Source: Acidimicrobiales bacterium
Lineage (GTDB): Bacteria > Actinomycetota > Acidimicrobiia > Acidimicrobiales > Acidimicrobilacustridaceae
Length of the DNA stretch: 64,000 nucleotides
Direction of reading: 5' to 3'
Assembly (NCBI GenBank): GCA_044339605.1
Contig: JBIIVE010000001.1
Span: forward strand, 12,582-76,581
Part shown: positions 2,162 to 53,215 of the stretch, in pieces
How the letters are laid out: every line of letters starts with the position of its first letter
How positions within the stretch are numbered: the stretch's first letter is position 1
Made by a program: the position numbers and the translations under genes
The notes under the pieces: generated by a model
Database searches by the model: none
Told to the model about the DNA's origin: nothing
Seen by the model: the letters and a program-made list of their open reading frames with translations, nothing else

Positions 2162-4681
2162 CTATTCGGGAGCACCGGCTTCTGCCAGTTCCATGGGCGG
2201 GGGCTCGAAGCCCTCGGTGGCACGGAACACGATGATGCGTTCGCCCGTTTCGGGATCGGGTTCGGCGTCGACCACGATGTTCTGGCCGGCGCGGAACTCC
2301 TTCCACAACAAACGCTCGGAAAGCGGATCTTCGACCATGCGCTGAATGGCACGACGCAGCGGACGAGCACCCAATGTGGGGTCGTAGCCCTTGTCGGCCA
2401 GCAGCAACTTGGCAGCCTCAGTGAGTTCAAGACCAATGCCCTGACCTTCAAGCTGCTTGGTGACTCGCTTGATGAGCAGATCGACGATGGTCGTGACCTC
2501 GGGCTTAGAAAGCTCGTGGAACACGATGGTGTCGTCGATGCGGTTGAGGAACTCAGGACGGAAGTGCGCCTTGAGTGCGTCATTGACCTTTTCCTTCATG
2601 CGCTCGTACGAAACGGCTTCGTCGGCCTTACCAAAACCAATGTTGGCTTTGCGAAGATCGGCGGTGCCGAGGTTTGAGGTCATGATCAGCACGGTGTTGC
2701 GGAAGTCGACCGAACGACCTTGTGAGTCGGTGAGTCGGCCTTCTTCAAGAATCTGCAAAAACGTGTTGAAGACGTCGGGATGCGCCTTTTCGATTTCGTC
2801 GAAAAGCACAACTGAGAACGGCTTGCGACGCACTGCTTCGGTGAGCTGTCCGCCTTCTTCGTAACCGACGTATCCGGGAGGCGAACCGACGAGACGACTG
2901 ACGGTGTGCTTTTCCATGTACTCAGACATGTCGAGAGAGATGAGTGAATCTTCGTCGCCAAACAAGAACTCGGCGAGCGTCTTTGCCAGTTCAGTCTTAC
3001 CAACACCCGATGGGCCGAGGAAGATGAACGAACCAGAGGGACGCTTCGGATCTTTGAGACCTGCACGAGTACGACGGATGGCCTGGCTGACTGCCTTAAT
3101 GGCATTTTCCTGACCGATGACACGCTTGTGCAGTTCGTCTTCCATGCGCAGAAGGCGAGCAGTTTCTTCTTCAGTGAGTCTGTAAACGGGAATACCGGTC
3201 CAGAGTGAAAGCACCTCGGCGATGGCTTCTTCGTCGACCTCGTCGAAGAGATCGATGCCCGAGTCCTTCATTTCCTGCTCTTTGGTTTCTTTCTGCGCAA
3301 GCAGTTCCTTTTCGCGATCGCGCAAACGACCTGCTTCTTCGAACTGCTGCGATTCGACGGCTTCCTTCTTCTCGGTCACGACCTTGGTGATTTCGTTTTC
3401 GAGTTCCTTGAAATCGGGTGGTGTTTCCATGCGCTTAATGCGCAGACGCGAACCGGCTTCGTCGATGAGGTCGATGGCTTTGTCGGGAAGGAAACGATCG
3501 GCGATGTAGCGGTCGGCAAAGTTGGCCGCAGCAACAAGGGCCTGATCGGTGATGGTGACGCGGTGATGGGTCTCGTACCGGTCGCGCAAACCTTTGAGGA
3601 TTTCAATGGTGTGGGCGACGGTGGGCTCTTCAACCTTGATCGGCTGGAACCGACGCTCGAGTGCAGCGTCTTTTTCAAGATGCTTGCGGTACTCGTCGAG
3701 TGTGGTGGCACCAATTGTTTGCAGTTCACCACGAGCAAGCATCGGCTTGAGGATGCTTGCTGCATCGATTGCGCCTTCGGCAGCACCGGCACCAACGAGG
3801 GTGTGGATCTCGTCGATGAACAGAATGATGTCGCCACGAGTCTTGATTTCCTTGAGCACCTTCTTGAGGCGCTCTTCGAAATCACCGCGGTAACGCGAGC
3901 CGGCAACAAGCGCGCCCAGATCAAGTGTGTAGAGCTGCTTGCCGTGAAGCGTTTCCGGAACCTGATCGGCAGCGATTGCTTGCGCGAGACCTTCAACGAT
4001 TGCGGTCTTGCCGACACCAGGCTCGCCGATAAGAACAGGGTTGTTCTTGGTGCGGCGGCTGAGCACCTGCATGACGCGTTCGGTTTCGCGTGCACGACCG
4101 ATAACTGGGTCGAGCTTCTTTTCGCGAGCAAGTTGTGTGAGGTTGCGACCGAACTGATCGAGAACTGCCGAACCACTCGGTGATGCTTCGCTCGAACCGC
4201 CAGTGGCGGCTCCGGCCTTTTCGCCCTGTTGCGGACCAGGACCGGAATAGCCAGAAAGCAACTGAATGACTTGCTGGCGAACGCGGGAAAGGTCGGCGCC
4301 AAGCTTGACGAGCACCTGAGCAGCGACACCTTCGCCCTCACGAATGAGACCAAGAAGAATGTGTTCGGTGCCGATGTAGTTGTGCCCAAGTTGCAGCGCT
4401 TCGCGCAACGACAGTTCGAGCACCTTCTTGGCACGAGGCGTGAACGGGATGTGGCCGCTCGGCGATGAACCGCCCTGACCGATGATTTCTTCGACCTGCG
4501 AACGCACAGCCTCGAGCGAAATGCCCAAGGACTCGAGGGCCTTGGCGGCAACGCCTTCACCCTCGTGAATCAGCCCGAGCAAGATGTGCTCGGTGCCGAT
4601 GTAGTTGTGGTTCAGGAGGCGTGCTTCTTCCTGCGCAAGCACGACGACCCTGCGGGCCCTATCGGTGAACCGTTCAAACAC
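2162..4681 (-). CDS. clpC: ATP-dependent Clp protease ATP-binding subunit ClpC
   Basis: GTG start giving [11 protein letters not shown]; two Clp-N repeats; Walker A GEPGVGKT and GPSGVGKT; UVR-like middle domain. Confidence 0.97.
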
Positions 4682-14036: not shown

Positions 14037-14116
14037 CACGGTCTCCTGACGAGGGGACAAGAACAAAAACGTTCAACAGGTGGGAAATCGTAGTGATTCC
14101 CCAATCGGCAAAAGAG

Positions 14117-15629: not shown

Positions 15630-16703
15630 TTAGCCAGCAACCGGAAGCGCTGCGCCCATGCGATCGATCCACCGCTGTGGGTCACGGATCTCGAGAATGC
15701 TCGGAAGGTTCTCGGGACCTTCCCATGCTCGTGACAGCAACTGCTGACCGCCGGCACGCTCGACATCGGTGATGAACGCTTCGCCCTGCGCATATTGGGC
15801 CAACTTTGCCTGCAGGCCGATGAGTTGCTGAAAGATGCGCGCCATCCCGCGAGCCGATTCGCGTCGTTCGCGCAACACCTTTCCGAATCGATCGGCACTG
15901 GGCACTAAATCCTGGCCAGCGCGATCCATCGTGATGTCTCCGTGCCCTTCGAGAAGGCTCATCATTCCGCTCACCTGGTCGAGTACTGCGCGCTGTTCAG
16001 GACTCGCGATGAGAGTCATCAGTCCACCGTCGGCCAATGGCTTTTGGCCCGAACGGATTGCCGTTGTCACGCGTGCAATGGTTTCGCTCATTTTTGCGGG
16101 ATCGGGATCGATCGTGTTCATCGTCTCGTGAACGAGACCAAGAAAGTGTTCGCGCAACCATGGAACACCAGTGAATTGGGCTCGATGCGTTACCTCGTGC
16201 AAGGCCAACCACATTCGAAACTCTTCAGGCGGAAACGCAAACTGTTTTTCCAGTGCAAGAACATTTGGTCCGACGTAATAGACGATGTCCTGGTCTTGCG
16301 GATTTTCTTCTTCGATCACGAGAAGGTCGTACTGCCCCAACACCCGAGCCGACATCCAGCCCAACATCACACCAAGTTCCGCGCCCGCGAGTCGTGCGGT
16401 GATCGGAGCGACACGACTCGACGACACACGATCGCCGAACTTGTCGAGCATCGGTGCCAACAATCGTTGGAACGACGCGAGGTTGGCGCGAATCCATCCG
16501 GGTCGATCGGTCACTCGGGCACGAGCCGGACCAGCAAGTGACCGAAGCCCGGTCTCTTGTGCGACAAGTTCTTCCGCAACAGCAGTCAGCCGGTCGAAGT
16601 CAGGCTGTAGCGATTGATAGTGATAACTGGCAGCGAAGGGATCCTTCTTGGCGGTACGGATCGCGACCTTTTCGGCCACACCCCAATCGACCGCCGCGGC
16701 CAC
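15630..16703 (-). CDS. Zincin-like metallopeptidase (DUF2342 family)
   Basis: ALHEVTHRAQF (HExxH), MSLLEGH, LGQYD; usual position upstream of tilS. Confidence 0.88.
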   Translation of the reverse strand: MAAAVDWGVAEKVAIRTAKKDPFAASYHYQSLQPDFDRLTAVAEELVAQETGLRSLAGPARARVTDRPGWIRANLASFQRLLAPMLDKFGDRVSSSRVAPITARLAGAELGVMLGWMSARVLGQYDLLVIEEENPQDQDIVYYVGPNVLALEKQFAFPPEEFRMWLALHEVTHRAQFTGVPWLREHFLGLVHETMNTIDPDPAKMSETIARVTTAIRSGQKPLADGGLMTLIASPEQRAVLDQVSGMMSLLEGHGDITMDRAGQDLVPSADRFGKVLRERRESARGMARIFQQLIGLQAKLAQYAQGEAFITDVERAGGQQLLSRAWEGPENLPSILEIRDPQRWIDRMGAALPVAG

Positions 16704-16708
16704 GTTGC

Positions 16709-16843
16709 TCAGCGCTTGGGATAGCGGGGAGCGACGACCTTCTTCAGGTACAGGCCAATGATGACCACCACAATAAGGATCGTCGGCAGCAGAAGCGCCG
16801 GCGCAATCCAAAACGCCCAGACCTGTGCGAACAGAAGTTCCAT
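16709..16843 (-). CDS. Small single-pass membrane protein (44 aa)
   Basis: MELLFAQVWAFWIAPALLLPTILIVVVIIGLYLKKVVAPRYPKR; TAGGAT 7 nt upstream of the ATG. Confidence 0.7.
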   Translation of the reverse strand: MELLFAQVWAFWIAPALLLPTILIVVVIIGLYLKKVVAPRYPKR

Positions 16844-16853
16844 GCCTGTGATC

Positions 16854-17186
16854 CTAGGCCTCGCGGCCAGGCTCTCCGGCATCGTCAGCCCCAATTCCGC
16901 CCGAACCTTGAATCCGGAGATAGGTCAGTTTCTCTTCAATCCGGATTCGGAGAGTCTCGGGGAACTCCCCCGAATGGGTCTTGGTGGTGATGACCATGCG
17001 AAGTTCGGCCTCGAAATCGAAGGCCTCGAAACAGGGGCTGCAGGCATCGAGGTGGCCCATGATCTCGTTGCGCTGGGCGTCACTGAGTTCCTGATCGAGG
17101 AATGTGTAGACCTCGGCCAACGCTCGTTCGCAGTCAGGTGTCCCGGCAATTGGCATGGCGGGAGTGGCGTCGTGGTCGTGGGTCAT
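16854..17186 (-). CDS. rsrA: Zinc-binding anti-sigma factor RsrA/RshA
   Basis: ZAS motif C…HLDACSPC directly downstream of a SigH/SigR-like gene. Confidence 0.9.
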   Translation of the reverse strand: MTHDHDATPAMPIAGTPDCERALAEVYTFLDQELSDAQRNEIMGHLDACSPCFEAFDFEAELRMVITTKTHSGEFPETLRIRIEEKLTYLRIQGSGGIGADDAGEPGREA

Positions 17187-17194
17187 GGCGATTC

Positions 17195-17773
17195 TCAGGG
17201 GGCCTCGGGGACGGCATCGGCCAGTCCCCTCTCGATGGCAAAATCATGTAACTGCTTTTGGAGGGCTTTTCTTCCACGGTGGAGCCGACTCATCACGGTT
17301 CCGATCGGGATATCGAGATCCTCAGCGATTTCCTTGTATGACAAACCCTCGACATCGCTAAGGAGCACGGCGAGGCGATAGGACTCGGGCAGGGCATCGA
17401 CTGCCGCCTGCACGTCGGCATCGGTGAAGTAGTCCATGAGCTCGTCTTCGGCGCTGCGGGAGGCGCGAGCGGCTTCCAGACCGCCCATGCGGCGATACAG
17501 GTAGAAGTCCTCGACGCCATCGAGCTCAGTTTCGTCGGGACGGCGCTTCTTCGACCGATAGGAGTTGATGTAGGTGTTGGTGAGGATCCGGAACATCCAA
17601 GCCCGCAGGTTGGTGCCCTGCTCGAAGCCAGCAAATCCTTTGTACGCCTTCAGGTACGTCTCTTGAACCAGATCCTCGGCGTCTGACGCGTTATGCGTCA
17701 TTCGCAGCGCGGTGGAATACAGCTGCGGCATGTAGTCCATTGCCTGTTCGGCAAATGCGTCTTGATTGGCCAT
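17195..17773 (-). CDS. sigH: ECF sigma factor SigH/SigR
   Basis: [46 protein letters not shown]; start [12 protein letters not shown]. Confidence 0.92.
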
Positions 17774-17776
17774 CAG

Positions 17777-17849
17777 AGCCCGAGAGGAGAATCGAACTCC
17801 TGACCTGCTCATTACGAGTGAGCTGCTCTGCCGTCTGAGCTACCCGGGC
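17777..17849 (-). tRNA. tRNA-Thr(CGT), CCA not encoded
   Basis: GCCCGGG/CTCGGGC acceptor stem, D arm, GCTCA-CT-CGT-AA-TGAGC anticodon arm, AGGAG-TTCGATT-CTCCT T arm; TAACCT -10 at 17861-17866. Confidence 0.95.
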
Positions 17850-17925
17850 GGGAAGCGATGAGGTTAGCCGCCTGCTCCGATCGGACCCACTCGGCGCTCG
17901 TCAGCGGCGTGATGTCGTTGGCCAA

Positions 17926-19017
17926 TCAGCGACGGGGGCGGCCCAGTTTCGAAAAGAGCGCCACTAACTGCAGGCGTTCGTTCGGATTTCGCACGAGGTT
18001 GCTGGCGAGTTCAGCAATGTCATCGATTGATGCAGCCACATCGGCGGGGCGAGCCGAAGCCGCAAGGTCGTCACGGTAACGACGAGACAATTCAGTGAGT
18101 CCGGCCCTGATCTCGTCGGTTCGATAGCGGCGGACTTCTCGCTTGTGCCGATCCTCGAACTGCTTGCGACCCGAACCACGTTCACCGCGAGCCGCCACGA
18201 GTTCAGCGAACTCGGCAACTTCTGCAGCGTGTGCGTCGGTCAGCGGTGTCATTGCATCGTCGATCATGGCCAACAAGTCGTCGGCGGTTTCGATGGCGCG
18301 CGCACCGGTGCCGTCGAGACGATCGGGAACTGCGCGCCATGCCGCGCGTCGCAACGCGAGTCGATCATCGGTTGCCAAAAGTCGCGCACGGCCAAGATCA
18401 CCAACTGCGGCAGCGGCCGCATCGGCGGCGCGTTCAGGGGCAACACCTTCAGCGATCAGTCGCTCAATGATGAGTTCGTCGGTGATCGTCGCAAGGTCGA
18501 TGCGCACGCAACGGCTCGCAATGGTGACGAGATCATTTGGAACATCATCAGCAAGAACAACAAACACGGTGCGATCGGGTGGCTCTTCGATTGTCTTGAG
18601 TAGCTTCGGCGCTGCAGTGGTGACGAGATGGAACTCGTCGAGAATCAGCACTTTCGGTCCGTTCTCGATTGACGAACGGGCTGCTGTCGCGATGATTGTG
18701 TCGGCCTGTTCGGCAGAAATTGATGCCCCCACTCGTTCGAACTCGGTGATGTCGGAGTGATTCTGCGTAAGTGCCATGCGCGCCTGGCGGACAGCGTCAT
18801 CGCCATTTCGATCGCGGCTCACGAGCGCTGCAGCAAATGCACGCGCCAACTCGCGTTTGCCGCTACCGCGTGGGCCAACCAATAAGTAGGCATGCACCGG
18901 CGCATCGACCGCGGCGCGCAATTCGCCAACAGCGTCGTCCTGGCCAACGACATTGGACCAGAGTTCGATTCCAGCAAGTTCCGCCGACAGCGGCGGGTAG
19001 TCGGTGCGTGATGTCAC
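17926..19017 (-). CDS. holB: DNA polymerase III subunit delta'
   Basis: HAYLLVGPRGSGK, KLLKTIEEPP, TIASRC; follows tmk and precedes tRNA-Thr as in other actinobacteria. Confidence 0.88.
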   Translation of the reverse strand: MTSRTDYPPLSAELAGIELWSNVVGQDDAVGELRAAVDAPVHAYLLVGPRGSGKRELARAFAAALVSRDRNGDDAVRQARMALTQNHSDITEFERVGASISAEQADTIIATAARSSIENGPKVLILDEFHLVTTAAPKLLKTIEEPPDRTVFVVLADDVPNDLVTIASRCVRIDLATITDELIIERLIAEGVAPERAADAAAAAVGDLGRARLLATDDRLALRRAAWRAVPDRLDGTGARAIETADDLLAMIDDAMTPLTDAHAAEVAEFAELVAARGERGSGRKQFEDRHKREVRRYRTDEIRAGLTELSRRYRDDLAASARPADVAASIDDIAELASNLVRNPNERLQLVALFSKLGRPRR

Positions 19018-19625
19018 AGAAGCAGTTGTAGCCGCTCAGCGACCGCGGCGGACACTGCCGCTGACACCTCATCGATCGACGGCGTGCCATCAATGACAAC
19101 CCAGCGATCGGGTTCGGCTGCGGCTTGCGCCCGGAAGCCCTCGAGAACTGCAGCATGAAACGCTGCCGGTTCTGCCTCCATACGATCTCGAGCCGCACCG
19201 AGTCGACGATCGGCTTCGGCCTCGGGAACGTCCAACAGGATGATCAGGTCGGGCCACACACCGCCGGTTGCCCACAGCGAAAGATCGCGAATCTCGTTAA
19301 CCGGCAATCCGCGGCCGTGGCCCTGGTAGGCGATTGACGACCCCGCGAACCGATCAGTGACCACGTGTCGACCTGCGGCCAAAGCAGGTTCAACCAATTC
19401 AGCGACGTGTTGTGCGCGGTCAGCGGCCATGAGCAGCGCTTCGGCACGGTCAGAGAGATCGATCGTCTGCGGATCAAGAAGTACTGCTCGCAATTGCGCG
19501 CCGATCACCGTTCCACCCGGTTCGCGCGTGAGAACGGCATCAAGTGCATCGGCCAAGCGCGCTGATTGCGTGGATTTTCCGCAGGCTTCGCCACCTTCGA
19601 AAGCAATGAACATTCCGCGAGTCAT
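19014..19625 (-). CDS. tmk: Thymidylate kinase
   Basis: FEGGEACGKST, TREPGGT, DRF. Confidence 0.96.
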   Translation of the reverse strand: MTRGMFIAFEGGEACGKSTQSARLADALDAVLTREPGGTVIGAQLRAVLLDPQTIDLSDRAEALLMAADRAQHVAELVEPALAAGRHVVTDRFAGSSIAYQGHGRGLPVNEIRDLSLWATGGVWPDLIILLDVPEAEADRRLGAARDRMEAEPAAFHAAVLEGFRAQAAAEPDRWVVIDGTPSIDEVSAAVSAAVAERLQLLL

Positions 19626-21301
19626 GACGGATCTCCAAACGGCGGCGGCGGAATGAACCTAGGGCCTTCAGATCCAACGTCATCTGGATGAGGTTCAGGG
19701 ATGGGACCAGCCGGTCGAAGATCAATCGGCGTGAAATCCAAAGCTTGAGGATCCGGAGGATTGGGCCGCGACGGATGGTCTGATTCGCCAGCGCGCTTCA
19801 CGCGTTGTCCGGCGCGCAACGAAGCGGCTGCTACGAAACCCGCGGCGATGATGATCAGTGCAGCAAGCCACAGCGCGAGTCGAACGCCTGGGAGTTCCAC
19901 CGTTATGCCAGCAACGTTGATGCGATTATTAATCAACGTTGATGCCATGCGTCCAAGAATTGCTGCAAGTAGTGGGCCAGCAACCATTGCAATCAGCACG
20001 CACATACGAACCAGCGTGTTCAGCGAACTGAACACGCGTCCACGGAGATCGTCGGCGACTTCCTGTTGCAGCATTGCGAAGCCGAGTACATACACGGGAC
20101 CGACGGCAATACCCATCAGACCAACAAAAATCACTGCAGCCCACAATGAAGAAGAAGAGGCTGCACAGAACAACGAGATGCCAGCAGCGAATAACGCAGC
20201 GGTGAAGGTGGTGGTTTGTGGCAATCGCTTTTGGAACACCGACACACCAACCACACCGATGGCAACGCCGAAACCAAGTGAAGTGGTGAACAATCCATAG
20301 CCAGCAGCGCCAGCATCGAGAACTTCAGTAGAAAACACCGCTCCGAGCGGGATGAGCATGCCGCCACCGATAAGACCGGTCGCGAGACCCAAGTTCACTG
20401 CGCGAACAGTGTGGTTCTTCCAGATTTCGTTCCAGCCCTCGCGGAGTTCTTCGAGAGTGGCTTTTATGTCGACACGACGTTCATCATCAGCCGTGGACTT
20501 CACGCGTCTTTCGCGCTTTGGCAATGCCAAGCGGCTGATCATCCACGCAGAGAACAAAAAGGTCATGGCATCGACATAAAACGCGAAGGCCATCTGATTG
20601 GTCTCGAGCCATCCCAGACCAGGAATATTTCCGATCCACACTGACAAACCAGCGAGCAATGCAAACAGCAATGCGGCGAACGGGAAGGTTCCGTAGGCGG
20701 CAGCAAGTGAAAGTGAATTCGCGGTTGTGAGATGTTCGCGAGGAACAAGGTTTGGAACTTCTGAATCCTTTGCTGGTCCCCACAACAGCGTGAGCACTTC
20801 AAGCACAAGCGACGCAAGTACAAGGCCGATGACGTCGCTCACAAACGGAAGCATCACCATCACAAGTGCGCGACCGATATCGCAAGAGACCATGACTTTC
20901 TTGCGGTCCCACCGATCGACAAGCACACCTGCAAGCGGTCCAAAGAAGAAGCCCGGCACAATGCGTGCCGCCATCACCAGCGAGATCGCACCGGCGCCCG
21001 CGCCACCGCCGATGGTCGCGGCCAAAAGGATGATCGCCGAGAAGCCGAGCCAGTCGCCGGTAGCCGATACGACCTGCACAAGCCAGAGGCGGAAGAACTC
21101 ATGGCTGCCGAAGAGCCGCACATGGAACCCCGGACGATCCGAGGGGTCCTTGGTGAAAATGGTTTCGGTGTCTTCGCCGAAAAGCGAGGCCCGTGTCCAG
21201 CCCGGGATGGTCGCGTCAGCGTCGGGGCCAAGGGCCTCGACGGGCGTTGCATCCTCGGGGGGATCGGCGTCGTCCCGAGGTCCGGGGCGAGGCACAGCCA
21301 T
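19622..21301 (-). CDS. MFS transporter (H+ antiporter/macrolide-efflux-like)
   Basis: About 12 hydrophobic segments, GVLVDRWDRKKVM motif A, RGRVFS. Confidence 0.9.
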   Translation of the reverse strand: MAVPRPGPRDDADPPEDATPVEALGPDADATIPGWTRASLFGEDTETIFTKDPSDRPGFHVRLFGSHEFFRLWLVQVVSATGDWLGFSAIILLAATIGGGAGAGAISLVMAARIVPGFFFGPLAGVLVDRWDRKKVMVSCDIGRALVMVMLPFVSDVIGLVLASLVLEVLTLLWGPAKDSEVPNLVPREHLTTANSLSLAAAYGTFPFAALLFALLAGLSVWIGNIPGLGWLETNQMAFAFYVDAMTFLFSAWMISRLALPKRERRVKSTADDERRVDIKATLEELREGWNEIWKNHTVRAVNLGLATGLIGGGMLIPLGAVFSTEVLDAGAAGYGLFTTSLGFGVAIGVVGVSVFQKRLPQTTTFTAALFAAGISLFCAASSSSLWAAVIFVGLMGIAVGPVYVLGFAMLQQEVADDLRGRVFSSLNTLVRMCVLIAMVAGPLLAAILGRMASTLINNRINVAGITVELPGVRLALWLAALIIIAAGFVAAASLRAGQRVKRAGESDHPSRPNPPDPQALDFTPIDLRPAGPIPEPHPDDVGSEGPRFIPPPPFGDPS

Positions 21302-51935: not shown

Positions 51936-52042
51936 TGTTGTCCTCCGTGATTCAGCGGTGTATCGCAAAAGGGTAGCGGAATCATCGCCAAGATCACACG
52001 TTTGGGCGGGGAGAGCTCCCTCCTCGCCGGTAGATTTCCCGT

Positions 52043-53215
52043 ATGGAAGCCCTTCCCACCAGCGACGAGATCCTCGCTGCACTCCGAGGTGTGGTCGATC
52101 CCGAGCTCGGGGCCGACATCGTGGAACTGGGAATGGCCCGCTCCGCAACCGTTTCCGAAGCCGGCGCTGCGGTCGTCGTGGTGGCTCTGACCACCGCTGG
52201 CTGCCCGCTGAAGGCCCAACTGAAGCGAGAGATCCTCACCCGCATCGAGGGCCTCCCCGGCGTGACCTCGGCCTCCATCGATTGGGTCGAGATGGATGCC
52301 GAGCAAAAAGCCGCGGCCATGGACGTCGCTCGCAAGCACGCCCAATCCACCGCCGGCCCCAACCGAGTTCCACCGGGTGCCCGAGTGCTCGCCATTGCCT
52401 CAGGCAAGGGGGGCGTCGGAAAGTCCTCAGTTACCGCCAACCTTGCGGCAGCCCTGGCCAATCGCGGTTTCGCCGTTGGTGTCATCGACGCCGACATCTG
52501 GGGTTTCTCGATTCCGCGCATGCTCGGCATTGAAGGCCGACTTGAAGCAACAACTGGCCCGAACGAAGAACGCACGATCATCCCGAAGTCGATTCCCATC
52601 GGCACCGGCCGACTCGATGTCGTGTCCATGGGATTACTCGTCGATGACGAAACCGATGCACTCATGTGGCGCGGACTCATTTTGAATCGCGCCGTGCAGC
52701 ACTTCCTCGAAGACGTCTCGTGGGCGAACGATCTCGATTACATCGTCATCGACCTTCCACCCGGCACCGGCGATGTCCAAATGGGCCTTGCGCGCATGCT
52801 TCCGCAAGCGGAAATGATTGTGGTCACGACACCCGCAGTTGGCGCGCAACGTGTCGCGACTCGTGCAGTCACCATGGCCCGAAAGAGTCACCTCCATGTT
52901 CTCGGCGTCATCGAAAACATGAGCGCATTCACCTGCGAACACGGTCATACGCACGCCGTGTTCGGTGAGGGCGGCGGTGCAACGCTTGCTGCCGATGAAG
53001 GTTTGCCATTGCTGGGATGCATTCCACTTGAACCAGCTGTTTCTCACGGCGGCGACACCGGTGCACCAATCGTGCTCAGCGAAGGCGAAGCATCCTCCGC
53101 ACTTCGAGCAATTACCGAACTGCTTGTGACTGAACTCGCTCCGCCCATTTCAATGAGTGGTTGTTCCGCACGCATGCTCGACGCCGCCTTAGCTGCGCTC
53201 GACGCAGCTGACTAA
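52043..53215 (+). CDS. mrp: Mrp/NBP35 Fe-S carrier ATPase with N-terminal DUF59
   Basis: DPELG, SGKGGVGKS, DLPPGTGD, ENMS…C. Confidence 0.93.
   Translation: MEALPTSDEILAALRGVVDPELGADIVELGMARSATVSEAGAAVVVVALTTAGCPLKAQLKREILTRIEGLPGVTSASIDWVEMDAEQKAAAMDVARKHAQSTAGPNRVPPGARVLAIASGKGGVGKSSVTANLAAALANRGFAVGVIDADIWGFSIPRMLGIEGRLEATTGPNEERTIIPKSIPIGTGRLDVVSMGLLVDDETDALMWRGLILNRAVQHFLEDVSWANDLDYIVIDLPPGTGDVQMGLARMLPQAEMIVVTTPAVGAQRVATRAVTMARKSHLHVLGVIENMSAFTCEHGHTHAVFGEGGGATLAADEGLPLLGCIPLEPAVSHGGDTGAPIVLSEGEASSALRAITELLVTELAPPISMSGCSARMLDAALAALDAAD

Follow-up and report, generated by a model that had tools for sequence, protein, structure and literature searches.

In animal mitochondria, according to the tRNA punctuation model reportedly put forward by Ojala, Montoya and Attardi in 1981 (cited in PMC4633059 and PMC5474008), the excision of tRNAs from a polycistronic transcript is said to set the 5' end of the next mRNA, which has no or almost no leader and no Shine-Dalgarno sequence. 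Here we describe a comparable junction in a 64,000-nucleotide (nt) stretch of an Acidimicrobiales genome (assembly GCA_044339605.1, contig JBIIVE010000001.1; hereafter the window). A tRNA-Thr(CGT) gene ends 3 nt before the start codon of sigH, which encodes a SigH/SigR-like sigma factor and is followed by the anti-sigma gene rsrA. We consider it probable that the tRNA and sigH-rsrA form one unit, in which the cut at the tRNA 3' end yields a near-leaderless sigH-rsrA mRNA that is translated from the AUG at 17773. Here, in contrast to mitochondria, only one junction is involved, the bacterium is free-living and uses ordinary promoters elsewhere, and a 3-nt spacer stands at the positions of the CCA tail. 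The arrangement also appears to have arisen recently, through the loss of a leaderless promoter.

The thrU-tyrU-glyT-thrT-tufB operon of Escherichia coli is a bacterial tRNA-mRNA operon, in which a tRNA-Thr gene is likewise co-transcribed with a downstream protein gene and separated from it by processing. There, a spacer of about 100 nt and a Shine-Dalgarno sequence of its own precede tufB, and the processed 5' end is not its translation signal, unlike what we propose for sigH.

Leaderless mRNAs made by promoters have been described in Actinobacteria (PMC3898074, PMC4633059, PMC4681348, PMC3848588). The mode of translation would be the same here, and a -10 box lies 6-8 nt before the start in most Acidimicrobiia sigH genes and in 17 genes of the window. 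The 5' end of the sigH mRNA in the window would instead come from RNA cleavage (a monophosphate, possibly with 1-3 extra nt) rather than from transcription initiation (a triphosphate, with +1 at the A or G of the start codon). Leaderless mRNAs generated by MazF in E. coli (Vesper et al. 2011, as cited in PMC3848588) are, as far as the citing paper describes them, also made post-transcriptionally by an endonuclease. In that account MazF is a stress-induced toxin that leaves a 5'-OH end, and the case is debated, whereas we propose a constitutive step of housekeeping tRNA maturation. The SigR-RsrA system of Streptomyces coelicolor and the mycobacterial and corynebacterial SigH-RshA systems share the sigma/anti-sigma pair and its gene order with our locus (PMC5472188, PMC3489674, PMC4803200). 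In those systems a constitutive and an autoregulated GGAAT-N18-GTT promoter give leadered mRNAs; the autoregulated type was not found upstream of sigH here. Streptomyces sigR is also controlled at translation initiation, its GTC start codon being repressed by initiation factor 3 (IF3) (PMC5472188, PMC3489674, PMC4803200).

The ingredients are known: tRNA-mRNA co-transcripts, mitochondrial tRNA punctuation, actinobacterial leaderless translation and the SigH-RsrA pair. In the literature that we searched, we came across neither a tRNA-sigH fusion nor any bacterial leaderless mRNA that tRNA 3' processing produces. Leaderless mRNAs are usually credited to transcription initiation, and mRNA ends made by tRNA excision are seen as a peculiarity of organelles. 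The locus described here is a bacterial arrangement that is conserved and has evolved twice. In it, a housekeeping RNA cut appears to take over from a promoter the making of a leaderless 5' end, and the gene concerned encodes a master stress regulator. Three questions could be put to the locus as a natural experiment: whether the leaderless pathway of Actinobacteria accepts processed 5'-monophosphate RNAs whose leader is 0-3 nt, how tRNA 3' ends mature in the phylum (by ribonuclease (RNase) Z or by a C-specific RNase E, and with what role for an invariant C at position 74), and how regulation is rewired in streamlined genomes. The locus also flags a recurrent annotation error, in which sigH gene models are extended through the tRNA.

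The tRNA-sigH junction and its recurrence

All genes of the locus are on the minus strand. The 73-nt tRNA-Thr(CGT) gene occupies 17849-17777; ARAGORN reads its anticodon as cgt, and Rfam RF00005 matches over the full model with 64.8 bits (E 8e-13, gathering score 29). Its acceptor stem runs from G1-C72 to G7-C66 with all seven pairs standard or G-U. The discriminator, U17777, is followed by C17776, U17775 and G17774, so CCA is not encoded, and then by the ATG at 17773-17771. The spacer CUG (17774-17776) therefore stands at CCA positions 74-76, with the predicted cut at 17777/17776. Every coordinate in the initial annotation, which had placed the end of the tRNA 3 nt before the sigH ATG and its discriminator at 17777 with no encoded CCA, proved accurate when checked against the sequence, ARAGORN and Rfam. 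It had also seen no room for a Shine-Dalgarno sequence before ATG 17773, and indeed none can fit.

The gene that starts at this ATG, sigH (17195-17773), encodes a 192-amino-acid (aa) extracytoplasmic function (ECF) sigma factor. By far its best profile is TIGR02947 (4e-69, 232.1 bits, under the curated NCBIfam cut-off of 251.55), and its homologues carry the PF04542, PF08281 and PF04545 domains. Eight nucleotides past its stop codon lies rsrA (16854-17186), which matches TIGR03988 with 70.8 bits (cut-off 62.5). The translation contains H-LDA-C-SP-C, that is, the H-x3-C-x2-C (HxxxCxxC) motif of zinc anti-sigma factors. The neighbour of sigH is a bona fide RsrA, and the locus has the adjacent zinc anti-sigma factor of a SigH/SigR-RsrA module.

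We compared 80 genome loci, 31 close metagenome loci and 12 loci found by exact-protein look-up. Among them, 26 related loci make up what we call the window clade; they come from a group of freshwater Acidimicrobiia and share with the window 77-100% identity in SigH and down to 63% in holB, the gene upstream of the tRNA. In all twenty-six, the tRNA is followed by exactly 3 nt and an ATG, and it stands where the ancestral sigH promoter would have been. As the loci come from independent assemblies, the shared spacing makes the arrangement neither chance nor an assembly artefact. The spacer reads CTG, CTC or CCG, and this variation indicates that the site does accept mutations. Across these loci, the distance from the holB stop codon to the tRNA ranges from 58 to 97 nt, and that from the sigH stop codon to the rsrA start from -4 (an overlap) to +29 nt. 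By neighbour joining, the SigH sequences of the clade form a monophyletic group, which is nested among those from leaderless-promoter loci.

A second case was found in an unrelated metagenome-assembled genome (locus L051, SigH 59% identical), which has a 3-nt spacer CGG, a GTG start and a different tRNA sequence. L051 falls in a distant part of the SigH tree, among loci with spacers of 49-99 nt or divergent tRNAs. In its closest relatives, L151 and L152 (83%), a repeat-rich spacer of 115-155 nt follows the tRNA, and a TACCGT box lies near the ATG. Given this position in the tree and relatives that have no abutment, the tRNA-sigH fusion arose at least twice, each time with 3 nt. The spacers of L151 (1350-1500) and L152 (1420-1530) are filled with short tandem repeats of the GTGGACCGTGGACTGTGGAC type, and such repeats could have promoted the deletion that gave the L051 fusion.

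We considered whether the abutment is a neutral by-product of genome streamlining, with sigH carried on read-through transcripts and the 3 nt kept by inheritance rather than by selection. The clade does represent a single deletion event, L051 is also very compact (its -10 box lies 7 nt past the holB stop codon), and two events sharing 3 nt could be a coincidence (about 1 in 5 if 1-5 nt are tolerated). Against this, insertions and deletions have repeatedly changed the neighbouring intergenic distances, and the spacer has kept its length while its bases changed. Both sigH and rsrA are under purifying selection, which means that a working translation route must exist, and we take the processed mRNA to be that route. 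Streamlining accounts for the origin of the fusion and not for the fixed spacer length, and we find it unlikely as the whole explanation.

The spacer was also compared with the 3' ends of other tRNA-Thr(CGT) genes. In all 53 such genes of the fetched loci (L002-L155), CCA-encoding or not, the base right after discriminator U73 is C. The triplets that follow U73 are CCA (10 genes), CTG, CTC, CCG, CGG, CAA, CGA and others. Judged from these genes, the sigH spacer takes the place of CCA positions 74-76, and its first base would be under a general constraint. The pattern suggests that the 3'-processing enzyme of Acidimicrobiia uses C74 as a determinant or retains it.

Leaderless ancestry of sigH and the promoters of the locus

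Within the window, TANNNT stands exactly 6-8 nt before 17 candidate starts of long open reading frames (ORFs), with 0-1 occurrences at every other distance from 0 to 29 nt. Examples of such leaderless-type sites are 2056-, 4843+, 21301-, 28009+, 39151-/39196+, 44042-, 52043+ and 60225-/60265+, where the sign gives the strand. About one-quarter of all genes in the window look leaderless; among them are two divergent pairs, 39151/39196 and 60225/60265.

The same box precedes sigH in most relatives. Of 72 Acidimicrobiia loci without an abutting tRNA, 55 have a TANNNT 5-10 nt (mostly 6-8 nt) before the conserved sigH start, typically TAGGGT, TAGGTT or TACGGT. A box this close to the start reads as the signature of an actinobacterial leaderless promoter. 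The loci that have it include L026, L151 and L152, which are syntenic with the window (tmk-holB-tRNA-Thr-sigH). From this distribution, the ancestral state of sigH in Acidimicrobiia was leaderless, before the tRNA came to abut it. An autoregulatory GGAAY-N16-19-GTT promoter upstream of sigH was found in only 4 of the 72 loci. L011 and L015 combine a canonical GGAAT-N18-GTT, 65 nt upstream of sigH, with a TATGAT box that precedes the ATG by 9 nt; we liken this two-promoter layout, rare in the sampled Acidimicrobiia (4/72), to p1/p2 of Streptomyces sigR.

The gene order tmk-holB-tRNA-Thr-sigH-rsrA-DUF2342 is widespread among relatives, and a tRNA-Thr(CGT) gene is often near sigH. Outside the window clade, the distance between them ranges from 48 to more than 600 nt, and the tRNA can be on either strand. 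The initial annotation had proposed to look at the tRNA-to-ATG spacing across Acidimicrobiia; it is a constant 3 nt within the clade and variable beyond it. Because those other relatives have a sigH promoter of their own, the variable spacing explains the arrangement rather than refutes it.

A few relatives differ at the sigH 5' end. In L010 (about 2975-3001), sigH probably begins 18 nt before the aligned position, at a GTG (VATPAPTAVQALF) with TAGCGT 6 nt upstream; this would give a leaderless sigH with a 6-aa N-terminal extension. L049 (2911-3045) has a tandem duplicate of the first ~45 nt of sigH (ATGGCTGACCAAGCCAAATTCGCCGACCAAGCCATGGAGACCACAAGCC) ahead of the gene, and L012 has GCTCGATGAACGCC repeats upstream of sigH (about 2925-2975). 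From these two loci, the sigH 5' region appears to be prone to rearrangement.

In the window, the box lies on the other side of the tRNA. TAACCT at 17866-17861 (context GGCTAACCT) is the only TANNNT upstream, and a -35-like TGGGTC (17884-17889), whose role is predicted from its sequence, lies 17 nt further upstream. All 26 clade loci have a TANNNT 10-11 nt before the tRNA 5' end (TAACCT, TAATCT, TACAGT, TACGAT, TACCAT, TAAATT or TACGCT). Upstream of the tRNA, the clade's sequences have diverged except for GGC-TANNNT, usually with TGGGT(C/G) 17 nt further up. This pattern of conservation points to a conserved promoter upstream of the tRNA. The initial annotation had named TAACCT as the sole clear -10 box, and it stands, at a position that is kept across the clade.

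Transcription of sigH could also start from a promoter inside the tRNA gene, within or just past the acceptor stem and independently of processing; the initial annotation had listed such a start as a finding that would count against its own proposal. The only candidate is GATTCT in the T-loop, which precedes the ATG by 15-20 nt. Taken as a degenerate -10 box, it does have the two key bases, an A in second and a T in sixth position, and its conservation is uninformative since the tRNA itself constrains the T-loop sequence. A true TANNNT is absent from all three tRNA sequence variants, however, and the corresponding site in L051 is GATTCC, which lacks the key T. The predicted leader of about 8 nt with no Shine-Dalgarno sequence would be worse for translation than a processed end, and such a promoter leaves the invariant 3-nt spacing and an RNA contig end at 17776 (see below) unexplained. 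We therefore give an internal promoter a low probability.

We also looked for promoters of the type that SigH itself would recognize. No GGAAY-N16-19-GTT match lies between holB and sigH, and the window as a whole has 18 matches where about 12 are expected. The sole match upstream of sigH, at -1199, falls within holB and shows no conservation across the clade. A SigH-type motif in the holB 3' end of some relatives was set aside; it comes from R-N-P-N-E-R codons and is absent in the window. With no autoregulatory promoter, control would rest on RsrA redox chemistry together with RNA processing and decay. A generic promoter and terminator scan of 16700-19800 returned nothing relevant, as its TTGACA/TATAAT model is ill-suited to this organism.

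RNA evidence, the proposed 3' cut and the start codon

We then turned to assembled contigs of public metatranscriptomes (runs coded with X and a number). In five runs, contigs bridge the tRNA/sigH junction: X1 (17502-17874), X2 (17395-17805), X6 (17712-17862), X28 (17703-17860) and X29 (17642-17857). Together with the lack of a -10 box between or inside the two genes, these are consistent with the tRNA and sigH being on one primary transcript. The holB 3' end is uncovered in several of the bridging runs, which argues against plain DNA carry-over, without excluding it at these depths. Other contigs join the holB 3' end to the tRNA (X5, 17830-18054; X6, 17835-18147; X24, 17828-17900). The junction is uncovered in runs X14-X22 and X27.

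Two contigs end at the predicted cut. One from X9 (17547-17776) ends one base past the discriminator, 3 nt before the AUG, and one from X24 (17777-17857) ends on the discriminator, with no X24 contig running on into sigH. A de Bruijn branch caused by shared tRNA sequence would fall about 30 nt inside the tRNA, as do the contig ends at 17805 in X2 and X13, so the ends at 17777 and 17776 are more likely to be real coverage ends. A cluster of contig ends at 17857-17862 was considered as a transcription start and rejected. The X24 end at 17857 is a strain branch of the k-mer graph (contigs 8 and 9 overlap it by exactly 30 nt), and so we make no transcription-start claim from this cluster. Overall, the RNA contigs are consistent with a co-transcript and with a cut at 17777/17776; they are suggestive and not proof.

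The core of the initial annotation, a shared transcript whose tRNA 3' cut releases a near-leaderless mRNA, thus holds as far as the sequence and the RNA contigs go. In the sequence of events that we propose, the ancestral leaderless sigH promoter, 6-8 nt before the start codon, would have been deleted and a tRNA processing site put in its place. The tRNA-sigH-rsrA unit would now be transcribed from the sigma-A-type promoter upstream of the tRNA (TAACCT), with holB contributing some read-through. The tRNA would be excised by RNase P together with a 3' endonuclease, the latter cutting at or within the spacer, most likely between U73 (17777) and C74 (17776). The 3' cut would at the same time make the 5'-monophosphate end of a sigH-rsrA mRNA with a leader of 0-3 nt, to be translated from AUG 17773 by the leaderless, 5'-end-dependent pathway, as in the ancestors of this sigH. 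The translation of the processed sigH RNA, the nuclease that cuts it and any further trimming are inferred.

Two enzymes are plausible for the 3' cut. In S. coelicolor and Propionibacterium acnes, tRNA precursors are cut between the two Cs of an encoded CCA, CCA-less tRNAs are cut a few nt downstream, and P. acnes has no obvious RNase Z (PMC4681348, PMC3848588). Some actinobacteria have no RNase Z (PMC3848588), and mycobacterial RNase E cuts immediately 5' of cytidines (PMC10641625). This end-mapping and the preference of RNase E make RNase Z, the enzyme named in the initial annotation, just one of two plausible candidates. A CCA-less precursor and the position of the cut would fit RNase Z, and the invariant C74 would plausibly fit a C-preferring RNase E at least as well. 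Either would leave a 5'-monophosphate CUGAUG... end or a slightly shorter one.

Several points weigh against a processed, near-leaderless sigH mRNA. On the RNA side, the data are assembled contigs of low depth (2-7), which are strandless and do not give read-level 5' ends. DNA carry-over is possible for the bridging contigs, and the two informative contig ends (17776 and 17777) are single observations. The clade is one evolutionary event and L051 a second, so that n = 2 for the 3-nt rule. A start codon at +1 has been reported as necessary for leaderless initiation in mycobacteria (PMC4633059), and in Caulobacter each extra 5' nt costs about 2-fold, leaderless translation being lowered and not abolished (PMC8459731). 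With such a penalty, an RNA with a 3-nt leader would be poorly translated unless it is trimmed or the cut is closer to the AUG. In addition, a 5'-monophosphate end makes an RNA a good target for decay. The sigH RNA may be trimmed, or its translation may be modest; a sigma/anti-sigma pair whose members are made at a constant ratio may tolerate such a level.

It is also conceivable that the uncut precursor is translated, with the folded tRNA presenting the AUG for Shine-Dalgarno-independent internal initiation or 70S scanning and cleavage being incidental. The bridging contigs show that a precursor exists, and the first 19 nt of the sigH coding region are predicted to be unpaired. But the precursor has neither a Shine-Dalgarno sequence nor an A-rich standby site, and tRNA 3' maturation is normally fast and essential; as the tRNA must work, the junction must be cut. 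Both the ancestry of sigH and the starts across the window point to 5'-end-dependent initiation, and we judge translation of the precursor improbable. RNA folding added little. Minimum-free-energy folding of the precursor did not recover the cloverleaf (z = -1.5) and was little informative, and over the first 60 nt of the mRNAs, structure was neither above nor below that of shuffled sequences.

The start at ATG 17773, on which the processed end would bear, is well marked in SigH alignments. About 240 SigH homologues share an N-terminus of the form M/V-A-D/N-Q-x-x-F-A-x-x-A-M, and A2, F7 and M12 are invariant in a diverse SigH alignment. In the window clade, codons 2, 7 and 11 show synonymous changes only (GCA/GCC/GCT, TTT/TTC and GCA/GCG), which indicates that these codons are translated and that the start is ATG 17773 and not M12 or M15. 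Initiation at the downstream ATGs, which the initial annotation had named as an outcome that would speak against it, runs counter to this pattern.

The sigH frame is open back to an ATG at 17812 inside the anticodon stem, as the initial annotation had seen and as ORF translation bears out. The longer isoform of 205 aa that it suggested from there, and that several gene callers predict, fared less well. Database entries such as P0001, P0017 and P0047 do carry the extension. It corresponds to the 3' half of the tRNA, translated as if it were coding, and is identical wherever the tRNA is identical. ATG 17812 has no Shine-Dalgarno sequence and lies inside a stem of an excised RNA, and homologues with no tRNA begin at M/V-A-D-Q. 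We regard this isoform as very improbable, and from these comparisons the 205-aa SigH is an annotation artefact. Public gene calls in which sigH is lengthened by 13 codons through the tRNA are P0001, P0002, P0017, P0019, P0022, P0025, P0026, P0033 and P0047, and in L153 (1368-1508) a 46-aa ORF was called across the tRNA. Gene calls that run sigH through the tRNA are a systematic annotation artefact of the abutment.

A stronger form of the processing proposal is that tRNA punctuation is here a selected mechanism. The 3'-processing cut would then be the only route to a translatable 5'-monophosphate leaderless sigH-rsrA mRNA, and SigH-RsrA synthesis would depend on how active the tRNA promoter is and on how much RNA passes through the processing nuclease, rather than on an autoregulated promoter. 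The mechanism would have evolved at least twice, and it may be general for leaderless genes after promoter loss in streamlined Actinomycetota. We put this forward tentatively, as a possibility that is rather doubtful at present. That the thiol-stress regulon is tied to tRNA maturation, as the initial annotation had proposed, we regard as speculation.

Neighbouring genes and further matches

The minus-strand gene series begins upstream with topA (24342-21355), which is followed by a gene for a major facilitator superfamily (MFS) transporter, by tmk (19625-19014) and by holB (19017-17926), which encodes the DNA polymerase III delta' subunit (NCBIfam PRK07940 / TIGR00678). Beyond the tRNA, sigH and rsrA comes a hydrophobic ORF of 44 aa (16709-16843), which precedes a DUF2342/zincin gene, and then come tilS, hpt, folE and folP. 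The hydrophobic ORF (MELLFAQVWAFWIAPALLLPTILIVVVIIGLYLKKVVAPRYPKR, 44-45 aa) has no Pfam match and is conserved in L145 (2910-3044), L148 (3005-3139) and L153 (2431-2568). At a permissive E-value, Rfam gave just a chance antisense plastid match besides the tRNA.

Two of the SigH/SigR-type promoter matches in the window lie close to genes. The first, GGAATCACTACGATTTCCCACCTGTT (14075-14100, minus strand), is just upstream of folE (GTP cyclohydrolase I, 14036-13464). The second, GGAATCATCGCCAAGATCACACGTT (51978-52002, plus strand), precedes a gene for an Mrp/ApbC Fe-S carrier (52043-53215), which also has a leaderless-type TAGATT box. From the position of these matches, folE and the Mrp/ApbC gene are possible members of the SigH regulon.

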